Virus record (IMG/VR): IMGVR_UViG_2744054675_000008
Location: 1-10,577 of that record
Direction: 5' to 3' (one strand)
Length of the DNA stretch: 10,577 bases
DNA from: a virus
Lineage: Duplodnaviria > Heunggongvirae > Uroviricota > Caudoviricetes
The position numbers were made by a program, and so were the translations under genes. Below, piece after piece: positions 5,181-5,996 of the stretch. Below the pieces are notes generated by a model that saw nothing but the letters and a program-made list of their open reading frames with translations, made no database searches and was not told the origin of the DNA. Position 1 is the first letter of the stretch, and each line of letters starts with the position of its first letter.

Positions 5181-5996
5181 ATGAGCAGACATGCAACAGA
5201 TTGGGCCTGGGAGACAGATCCAGGTAGCTCGTCATTAAAGCTCATACTGCTCTCGATGGCTGACAGAGCCGATGAATATAACCTCTGCTACCCCAGCATA
5301 GAACGCCTCGTTAAAGACACTTGCCTGAATAAAAAAACCGTGCAGGCCGGACTTATATCGCTCATGAAAATGGGGCTTATTTCAGATACCGGAGAGAGAA
5401 AGGGAGCGACGAAAAGAGTGCGGGTTTTCTCTCTTAATATAACCAAAAACGGGAACATTAAAGGCAACCGGGAAGGGGGTAATGAACCCGAAAACGGTAA
5501 TGTTACCGAAAACGGGAATATACCCAAAAACGGGATGTTGAATGATCCCAAAAACGGGATGTTGAATGATCCCAAAAACGGGATCCAGAACCAGTCATAT
5601 AACCAGTCATTTAACCAAGAGAGGGAGAGCAGGACAAAAACCGGGGATTCTGTGCCTCATGACCCCGGCGCAAACAACGCCGTGATGAATAACTTTGTTC
5701 CTCCTGGTGGGCCAGGGCAATTAGGCAAATTTGTCATGCATGAACAATGGCAGCCATCAGATGACTTTCTTCGGAAAAGCTCATTGCAGGGGATCTACCT
5801 GGACAGTCTGCCAACGGCACAGGAACTTGCAGAGTTCAGAATTTACTGGATGGCTGAGGGTAAGGCATACCATCAGGCACAGTGGGAGCAGAAGCTGGCA
5901 AGGCGGCTGCAGATTAGCAGACAGAAGCAATCAACATTACCTGATAACAACGTTCCGCACTGGAACAGCCCTGAAGCATGGGAGGATTTCTTGTGA
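5181..5996 (+). CDS. Replication initiator (O-functional analogue): N-terminal HTH_36-type winged-helix domain, Asn/Gly-rich repeat linker, DnaT-like C-terminal domain
   Basis: N-terminal LKLILLSMADRADEYNLCYPSIERLVKDTCLNKKTVQAGLISLMKMGLI fits the HTH_36 pattern of phage replication proteins. C-terminal WQPSDDFLRKSSLQGIYLDSLPTAQELAEFRIYWMAEGKAYHQAQWEQKLARRLQ resembles the DnaT C-terminal domain as I recall it. GGAG Shine-Dalgarno; stop overlaps the P start. Confidence 0.7.
   Translation: MSRHATDWAWETDPGSSSLKLILLSMADRADEYNLCYPSIERLVKDTCLNKKTVQAGLISLMKMGLISDTGERKGATKRVRVFSLNITKNGNIKGNREGGNEPENGNVTENGNIPKNGMLNDPKNGMLNDPKNGIQNQSYNQSFNQERESRTKTGDSVPHDPGANNAVMNNFVPPGGPGQLGKFVMHEQWQPSDDFLRKSSLQGIYLDSLPTAQELAEFRIYWMAEGKAYHQAQWEQKLARRLQISRQKQSTLPDNNVPHWNSPEAWEDFL
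5441..5586. repeat. Iteron-like direct repeats inside the initiator gene (candidate replication origin): two perfect 24-bp tandem copies CCCAAAAACGGGATGTTGAATGAT plus a partial third, preceded by degenerate AAAACGGGA-core copies
   Basis: Perfect tandem copies at 5523-5546 and 5547-5570, partial copy 5571-5586; AAAACGG cores also at 5445, 5490 and 5509. Encodes the PKNGMLND repeat linker. Lambda ori iterons likewise lie inside gene O. Confidence 0.6.

Follow-up and report, generated by a model that had tools for sequence, protein, structure and literature searches.

A probable lambda-plan replication origin inside the initiator gene of a phiV10-like prophage

Where does a phiV10/epsilon15-like (Uetakevirus) prophage begin to replicate its DNA? 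The question is raised by a block of repeats inside the open reading frame (ORF) at 5181-5996 of the virus record IMGVR_UViG_2744054675_000008, whose 10,577 nucleotides, analysed as a whole, are here called the window. We argue, with a probability of roughly 0.8, that positions 5440-5620 form the replication origin of this prophage, laid out on the plan of phage lambda and lying inside the initiator's own gene. The recognition motif, its position after an N-terminal winged-helix domain and a trailing short repeat are conserved across distant relatives, and this conservation is one of DNA, independent of the reading frame and of the C-terminal domain that follows. An earlier reading of the window, made from its letters alone (the sequence-only reading), had proposed lambda-like origin iterons within the initiator gene, and comparison supports it: distant homologues, the chimeric phage GF-2, retention of the array through changes in copy number and the downstream P gene all point the same way. 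The arrangement is the expected, textbook lambda kind, hitherto unannotated for this phage group; a family-wide motif rule and a second class of repeat are modest additions.

The array itself occupies 5440-5584. Tandem Repeats Finder reports a repeat with a period of 24, 2.6 copies and 100% matches at 5523-5584, in agreement with the two perfect 24-bp tandem units and partial third unit noticed earlier, and another with a period of 18, 3.1 copies and 78% matches at 5478-5533. The core, CAAAAACGGG or CCGAAAACGG, stands at 5443, 5488, 5506, 5524, 5548 and 5572, giving six sites spaced 45/18/18/24/24 bp; degenerate upstream copies are present as had been said, except that one of them has AAAACGGTA and not AAAACGGGA. 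Written as CCRAAAWYGG, the core has six matches in the 10.6-kb window, all on the plus strand and all within the 140 bp of the array; dinucleotide shuffles average 0.29 and never exceed 2.

Each core lies in a 16-bp dyad-symmetric site, N3-CC-R-AAAW-Y-GG-N3, in which G/C tracts surround an A-rich centre. The six sites, on the plus strand, are iteron 1 (5440-5455, TAA-CCAAAAACGG-GAA); iterons 2 (5485-5500, AAC-CCGAAAACGG-TAA) and 3 (5503-5518, TTA-CCGAAAACGG-GAA), both of the 18-bp class, the unit of the latter being present in one to five copies in close relatives; iteron 4 (5521-5536, TAC-CCAAAAACGG-GAT), of the first 24-bp unit; iteron 5 (5545-5560, ATC-CCAAAAACGG-GAT), with perfect 5-bp dyad arms ATCCC/GGGAT around AAAAAC; and iteron 6 (5569-5584, ATC-CCAAAAACGG-GAT), nearest to the 12-bp repeats described below. 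Three GATC (Dam) sites fall within 42 bp (5544-5585), one per 24-bp iteron unit, the window having about one per 330 bp; the feature recurs in phage GF-2 and not in Vibrio and Acinetobacter relatives. These sites could serve control by Dam or SeqA, or could be a by-product of the ATCCC arm.

The 271-aa protein encoded by 5181-5996 (plus strand; ORF list, translation and Pfam) consists of an HTH_36 winged-helix N-domain (aa 18-67, E 1.8e-10), a repeat-encoded linker and a DnaT-type C-domain (PF17948, the DnaT DNA-binding domain; aa 184-252, E 1.1e-15). These Pfam positions agree with the earlier placing of the repeats in the linker between the two domains. The linker runs ...TKNGNIK...EPENGNVTENGNIPKNGMLNDPKNGMLNDPKNGIQNQSYNQSFNQE..., and the peptide that the array encodes contains ...IPKNGMLNDPKNGMLNDPKNGIQNQSYNQSFNQE.... 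The N-terminal DNA-binding domain, encoded by 5181-5439 (plus strand), is the presumed reader of the iterons, on the strength of the HTH_36 match and of homologues with repeats directly downstream. The C-domain, encoded by 5730-5936 (plus strand) and matched by DnaT chains in the PDB over aa 180-265 (E about 7e-21), is presumed to be a docking module for P-DnaB and/or a single-strand binder. An AlphaFold2 model of the protein from its single sequence was unusable (mean pLDDT 37.7).

The term 'O-like', applied to this initiator by the sequence-only reading, holds for function and architecture; it does not extend to membership of Pfam Phage_rep_O (PF04492), the N-domain being HTH_36 and the C-domain DnaT-like. 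A search at E up to 1 found, besides the C-domain, HTH_36 alone and no Phage_rep_O; lambda O itself matches PF04492 at 5.7e-36. Aligned by hhalign, the initiator's N-domain family and that of lambda O match with 79.5% probability (E 1.5e-5) over 36 columns, which suggests remote relationship without membership, and HTH_36 has been reported in lambda O by HHpred (Brezellec et al., PMC5509034). BLASTP found no similarity in the window protein to a lambda-O-type C-half such as GF-2 carries, its C-domain being of DnaT type. The RefSeq orthologue in phiV10 is called 'replication initiation protein', the sole source to use that name. Other database names are 'primosomal protein', 'DnaT', 'DnaT-like ssDNA-binding domain-containing protein', 'helix-turn-helix domain-containing protein' and 'pyocin large subunit-like'; the 'primosomal protein' and 'DnaT-like' names arise because the C-domain matches DnaT.

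How does the array behave in close relatives? Megablast with gene 5181-5996 matches phiV10 (97% identity), vB_EcoP_PAS61, phiv142-3 and further Uetakevirus-type phages, together with prophage copies in 424 of 5426 complete E. coli genomes. The gene measures 792-870 nt in E. coli, and initiator homologues in a large protein collection measure 271-311 aa, all at least 86% identical. Every difference among nine aligned variants is one of whole units, with 1-5 copies of the 18-bp unit, 1.6-3.6 of the 24-bp unit and 2.4-3.4 of the 12-bp unit, and arrays of close relatives hold 5-9 core sites. Since the sites double as codons of a flexible linker (PKNG/PENG units), slippage would alter site number and linker length together. 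The array is present in every close relative compared, among them the isolated phages phiV10, PAS61 and phiv142-3. The comparison of copy number that the sequence-only reading had suggested thus gives a number that varies and an array that is always kept; it turned up no replicating close relative from which the repeats are absent, viable phages included.

The same pairing of domain and repeat is found much farther away. With the N-domain (aa 1-87) as query, tblastn returned 124 phage records, and seven lineages were compared: Edwardsiella GF-2, Vibrio Her, Acinetobacter AB1 and Ab105-2phi, PPompW, Burkholderia Bcep176 and EBPR podovirus 1. Their N-domains are 42-58% identical to that of the window, and the same core occurs in all seven, in 3-6 copies directly after the N-domain, about 270-470 nt into the gene (examples are CCCAAAATTGGGA, CCGAAAACGGTAC, CCCAAATTTGGG, GTACCGAAATTGGTAC and AGTCCCAAAAACGGGACT). 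Cores are spaced 17 and 22 nt in Bcep176 and 25, 34, 33, 22 and 23 nt in EBPR podovirus 1, where all three reading frames are used. A relative from an Stx2 phage, with 29% N-domain identity, has a different repeat, GGGGTGGGGCAGGAGCTGCCC. Across the distant lineages the C-terminal domains vary, and N-domain and repeats remain joined.

One of these lineages, GF-2, bears directly on lambda. Its 'O' protein shares 52% identity with the window protein across aa 1-139, repeat-encoded part included, and 62% with aa 156-299 of lambda O. Past the repeats on their right side, GF-2 DNA aligns with the palindrome of the lambda origin (CGTCCGAGAATTCTGACGAATCCTCAGAC versus CGTCAGAGAATTCTGGCGAATCCTCTGAC), and the segment that is held in lambda by the four iterons (NC_001416; TCCCTCAAAACGAGGGAA and others) is held in GF-2 by window-type repeats. 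Judged from these alignments, GF-2 is a natural chimera in which window-type repeats sit exactly where the lambda iterons sit. By the classical argument from module swaps, N-domain and repeats would form a cognate pair.

We also scanned IMG/VR at the DNA level only, with the pattern AAAACGG-N(8-17)-CCRAAAWYGG-N(8-17)-CCRAAAWYGG; since three phased cores are required, arrays with other cores lie outside its reach. The scan found at least 120 stretches, every listed match lying in an open frame, and 116 of the 120 listed matches are in initiator genes. At least 67 belong to the N-domain family of the window, as judged by a hidden Markov model (HMM), at 27-100% identity to the window, and for the 67 HTH_36-family matches listed the first matched repeat begins a median of 13 aa past the N-domain. 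At least 33 fall in genes of the true lambda-O family, Phage_rep_O (a representative shares 33% identity with lambda O), and at least 16 in a third initiator-like family without a Pfam match, which by profile resembles the other two weakly (32% and 5%). Members of this third family (loci L041, L077, L088 and L124) have the N-terminus MTY.L.IDQ.FA... and carry AGTCCGAAAACGGACT repeats at the same relative position in the gene. Two of the four matches elsewhere are in short open frames (231 and 516 nt), of which one lies at a contig end; the other two are taken up below. From the HTH_36-family matches listed, 63 non-redundant arrays were drawn for what follows.

If the array is where the initiator binds, where does the DNA open? 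Directly to the right, at 5589-5617 (plus strand), lies a 12-bp repeat, AACCAGTCATWT, in 2.4 copies (Tandem Repeats Finder, 94% matches), A-rich on its top strand, which we regard as a candidate DNA-unwinding element; phiV10 has 3 copies. The sequence-only reading had seen here a short direct repeat and a moderately AT-rich stretch. The repeat has proved not to be incidental, with equivalents in 41 of 60 non-redundant relatives, and the AT-richness is real and modest only: A+T makes up 61% of 5585-5620 and 51% of the window, and just two 36-mers of the gene are less stable than this stretch. Across the family, 62 of the 63 arrays show a higher A+T content in the 50 nt past the last iteron than in the remainder of the ORF (57.8% versus 48.5%), and the top strand of those 50 nt is A-rich (A-T skew +0.44). 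In 41 of 60 non-redundant arrays a tandem repeat past the iterons scores above the 95th percentile of controls; its period is 10, 11, 12 or 13 nt in 1, 10, 23 and 7 arrays, respectively, it is often out of frame, and typical units are GAACCAGTCATTA, GAACCTATCAAT and GAATCAGTAAAT. By its sequence, the window's AACCAGTCATWT repeat is a member of this family-wide class of 10-13-nt post-iteron repeats. That 5589-5617 is the counterpart of lambda's AT-rich unwinding tract we infer by analogy, and this is the weakest step of the argument.

Still further right, a degenerate half-site, CAAAAACCGGGGAT (CAAAAAACGGGGAT in phiV10), may be present at 5634-5648 (plus strand, from sequence), an assignment of low confidence. 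A weak inverted repeat, CCGGGG (5641-5646) and CCCCGG (5663-5668), lies roughly at the position of lambda's palindrome. A search for a lambda-like palindrome across the family gave no significant or convincing result, the best inverted-repeat arm being 5.15 nt against 4.59 nt in controls.

The likeliest of the alternatives concerns the place of opening. The repeats might bind the initiator for autoregulation or copy control only (by titration, handcuffing or a transcription roadblock), with opening and helicase loading taking place elsewhere, for instance in AT-rich intergenic DNA. Plasmid iterons are known in both origin and regulatory roles, between 4400 and 7000 the DNA of lowest stability is intergenic (4537, 6821, 4449 and 4856) and not beside the array, and the stretch past the iterons is only 61% A+T. 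Yet the GF-2 repeats replace lambda iterons in a lambda-like origin whose right half is conserved, a short A-rich repeat trails the iterons family-wide, as expected of an origin, and the AT-rich intergenic regions carry operators, promoters and terminators but no repeats of the motif. We therefore consider a purely regulatory array improbable.

Is it, then, the DNA or the encoded peptide that is conserved? The repeats could be a slippage-prone, low-complexity protein linker of PKNG/PENG units without any function as DNA. All six window copies share one frame, the copy-number changes in close relatives are all in frame (units of 18, 24 and 12 bp), and two unrelated E/K-rich proteins carry the motif as a peptide repeat, all of which such a linker would explain. 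It would not explain why 31 of the 63 non-redundant arrays read the core in two or three frames, with different peptides as the outcome (frame usage among the 63 is 259, 46 and 27), which argues for selection on DNA and not on peptide. Core spacings of 16, 17, 22, 23 and 26 nt are common among these arrays, that is, spacings that are not multiples of 3. Moreover, the frame of the core differs between initiator families, and the core reads PKTG in lambda-O-family arrays and PKNG in the window.

The flanks of the core speak the same language. Dyad symmetry continues for 3 nt to either side of the core: complementary flank pairs make up 52-59%, as against 36-43% in shuffles, and 0-5 of 2000 shuffles attain the observed level. 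This symmetry has no explanation in terms of protein. The arms change in concert between lineages (ATCCC/GGGAT, GTCCC/GGGAC, GTACC/GGTAC), with a flank consensus of GT(C/A)CC...GG(G/T)AC for the HTH_36 type, TTACC...GGGAAA for Klebsiella-type lambda-O relatives and AGTCC...GGACT for the third family. Given these frames, spacings and symmetric flanks, a linker devoid of DNA function has very little left to recommend it. A hairpin or cruciform reading of the dyads was also rejected, as single-strand folding of 5436-5625 is no better than that of shuffles (z -1.37), and the symmetry of the flanks together with this result favours binding of a dimeric protein.

The sequence-only reading had also singled out a 14-bp palindrome, CGGTAA-TG-TTACCG, built from operator half-sites in inverted order. 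It is present at 5495-5508, and on inspection of the sequence it is the junction of iterons 2 and 3 (...GGTAA/TG/TTACC...), neither a separate element nor, by order and spacing, related to the operators; strain TUM9975 has three extra 18-bp units, each of which repeats this junction. The operators themselves read TTACC-N5-GGTAA, with 12 matches at up to 2 mismatches in the window against 2.75 expected. That the prophage repressor binds the array as an extra operator, and so shuts off replication in the lysogen, is scarcely credible and was rejected: both half-sites, TTACC and GGTAA, do occur in iterons 2-3, but none of the 12 operator matches falls inside the array, the pentamers there are N6-spaced, or in inverted order with N2, instead of N5, just 2 of the 6 sites contain them, and the core is retained in relatives with other repressors.

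How might the origin work? We infer the steps from lambda (PMC7466680) and textbook knowledge. Dimers of the HTH_36 N-domain would bind the G/C arms of each site and bend its A-tract centre, and the bound dimers would assemble into a complex resembling the O-some. Rightward early transcription through the gene would help to activate the origin; the initiator gene is transcribed from the promoter region at 4485-4547, and the origin within it would therefore be as well. The adjacent region of 12-bp repeats would then open, and the DnaT-like C-domain would recruit P-DnaB and perhaps hold the opened strand, a role that is allowed because DnaT is known to bind single-strand DNA. The lambda-P homologue encoded by the adjacent gene would deliver the host's DnaB helicase. 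A docking role for the C-domain fits the way in which domains are exchanged behind N-domain and repeats: among the matches listed, the C-domain is DnaT-like in 35 arrays, lambda-O-like in 1 and of another kind in 31, and a DnaT_C-like C-domain is paired with a downstream P in 28 of 30 arrays for which downstream sequence is available, whereas 25 of 26 arrays with other C-domains have no P.

Several observations weigh against an origin at 5440-5620. First, the N-domain stands outside the Pfam family of lambda O, and the profile-profile similarity of the two is only moderate (79.5%). Second, one core is common to three initiator families, so the core alone cannot give an origin its specificity. 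Flank similarity does rise with N-domain identity (Spearman 0.23), flank identity going from 0.42 below 40% N-domain identity to 0.72 above 90%; this covariation of N-domain and iteron flanks is, however, inseparable from shared ancestry, which alone would produce the rise. Third, two of the scan matches, loci L031 and L094, are E/K-rich proteins that match purely through a peptide repeat (DHPKTEEK and ERPAPKT), and the pattern can therefore arise without origin function, which sets the false-positive rate of the motif rule at about 2% (2 of 120 listed matches). Fourth, intergenic DNA at 4537, 6821 and 4856 is less stable than 5585-5620. Fifth, there is no DnaA box near the array, the lone match to TTWTNCACA in the window (7281-7289) being at chance level. 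Finally, full-text searches found no description of this origin in the literature.

Beyond the window, we put forward a wider proposal, tentatively and in the knowledge that the odds are rather against it. A common origin grammar may be shared by at least three sequence-distinct initiator families (HTH_36, Phage_rep_O and the family without a Pfam match), in which CCRAAAWYGG occurs 3-9 times after the DNA-binding domain with 3-nt flanks specific to the family. A second element would follow, namely 2-4 tandem 10-13-nt repeats of GAAC type, and this would be the true site of unwinding or of single-strand binding; the initiator (here by means of its DnaT-like domain) would hold it as plasmid Rep proteins hold the repeats of their unwinding element. 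This second element, seen for the HTH_36 family only, may so far be without description for phages.

Around the initiator, genes follow one another as repressor, cro-like gene, terminator, small ORF, initiator, lambda-P homologue and DUF1064 gene, and from repressor to P this order agrees with the annotation of phiV10. The repressor gene (3824-4429, minus strand) encodes two HTH motifs, and the cro-like gene is at 4584-4814. Between them, 4485-4547 holds the right operator cluster, with three TTACC-N5-GGTAA sites, and the rightward early promoter region, as judged from the operator scan and the sequence. Other operator sites are at 3712-3726, 3774-3788, 4870-4884, 6816-6830 and 6878-6892, which makes a left cluster, a right cluster and a single site ahead of the small ORF. 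The pair at 6816-6830 and 6878-6892, both perfect sites, comes after the P gene has ended and before the DUF1064 gene, which suggests a third region under repressor control, beyond the replication genes. The lambda-P homologue, a helicase loader (5993-6778, plus strand; Pfam PF06992, replication protein P, E 1.5e-56), most likely starts at GTG 5993, overlapping the TGA stop of the initiator, as relatives are annotated; in RefSeq relatives the P gene has 786 nt and a 4-nt overlap with the initiator stop. The small ORF upstream of the initiator (4965-5165) holds the position of cII and encodes a Cys/His-rich peptide (CKHGH...CVEC); it has no Pfam match, is hypothetical in all relatives and by sequence is no CII homologue. 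GenBank records KP869107.1 and KP869108.1 (E. coli O157 typing phages 9 and 10) are linear and opened inside the initiator gene, at or beside the array, which is probably an assembly break due to the repeats rather than a genome end.

Taken together, these observations give a candidate origin, and a role as initiator, to a gene listed in databases as 'primosomal protein' or 'DnaT-like ssDNA-binding protein', a DnaT-type name that misses the initiator role. The gene is carried by about 8% of complete E. coli genomes and by the reporter and typing phage phiV10. They also yield a sequence rule for origins, namely phased CCRAAAWYGG after a winged-helix domain and then a short A-rich repeat, which covers related replication modules, some of them in Stx-phage types reported as unstudied (PMC8951638). 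The array is in addition a candidate incompatibility or titration element, and a place at which short-read assemblies tend to break. If the shared grammar proved true, sequence alone could suffice to call the origins of many temperate phages, and the DnaT fold would gain a role at origins.

How, finally, does this locus compare with systems that are already known? The model for the element is the lambda origin, which lies in the middle of O; in every iteron, O makes contact with the distal G residues of the G-tracts (PMC7466680). As in lambda, direct repeats occupy the linker-coding middle of the initiator gene, promoter-proximal to an A-rich tract; each repeat is a dyad whose AAAAC centre is bordered by C/G tracts (lambda TCCCTCAAAACGAGGGA, window ATCCCAAAAACGGGAT); sites are spaced by about two helical turns; and the gene of a P-type helicase loader follows directly. 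The two differ in that the distance between C3 and G3 tracts is 6 bp in the window and 9 bp in lambda, that the six sites of the window come in two unit lengths (18 and 24 bp) whereas lambda has four iterons, and that the A-rich tract of the window is a 12-bp repeat of 61% A+T, while lambda's is a 40-bp stretch that by eye is markedly more AT-rich. Furthermore, an HTH_36 N-domain and DnaT-type C-domain stand in place of Phage_rep_O with its lambda-O-type C-domain, and lambda's palindrome has no clear counterpart in the window. As published for lambda, iterons are intrinsically bent, their number varies, and O also binds the AT-rich region in single-stranded form (PMC7466680). Stx phages 933W and P27 have six iterons to lambda's four, and Stx O proteins are longer by 13 aa (PMC7466680). 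There, as in window-type variants, which gain or lose 6 or 8 aa per unit, extra iterons lengthen the linker; those phages are, however, close lambda-O relatives with lambda-type iterons and have been studied biochemically, whereas the window is known from sequence. Replication types of Stx phages also include HTH_36 proteins, the replication of which is reported as unstudied (PMC8951638).

Iteron plasmids such as RK2, pPS10 and R6K offer a second parallel, since their iterons adjoin unwinding-element repeats (about 13 nt long) with which the 10-13-nt GAACC-type repeats of the window family can be compared; a passage of PMC4081077 describes plasmid Rep proteins as binding one strand of the unwinding element in a sequence-specific manner. 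In plasmids the iterons do not code for protein and DnaA boxes usually stand with them, whereas the window array is coding and has no such box nearby. E. coli DnaT, a component of the replication-restart primosome, shares the C-domain, which matches its residues 85-170, but has neither HTH_36 nor embedded repeats and acts in restart, not at an origin. The two-gene architecture is also that of the DopC/DopE pair of Cellvibrionales and Oceanospirillales (Brezellec et al. 2017, PMC5509034), in which a protein with HTH_36 and a DnaT C-terminal motif is followed by a lambda-P-like protein. No iteron-like repeats were found in dopC, and its authors conclude that it is no longer an origin (PMC5509034); the phage gene of the window, by contrast, holds a full array. 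By sequence, the window gene thus looks like the undomesticated or ancestral form of the DopC/DopE module with its iterons intact, and the analysis would in that case have identified the likely phage ancestor of this bacterial pair.

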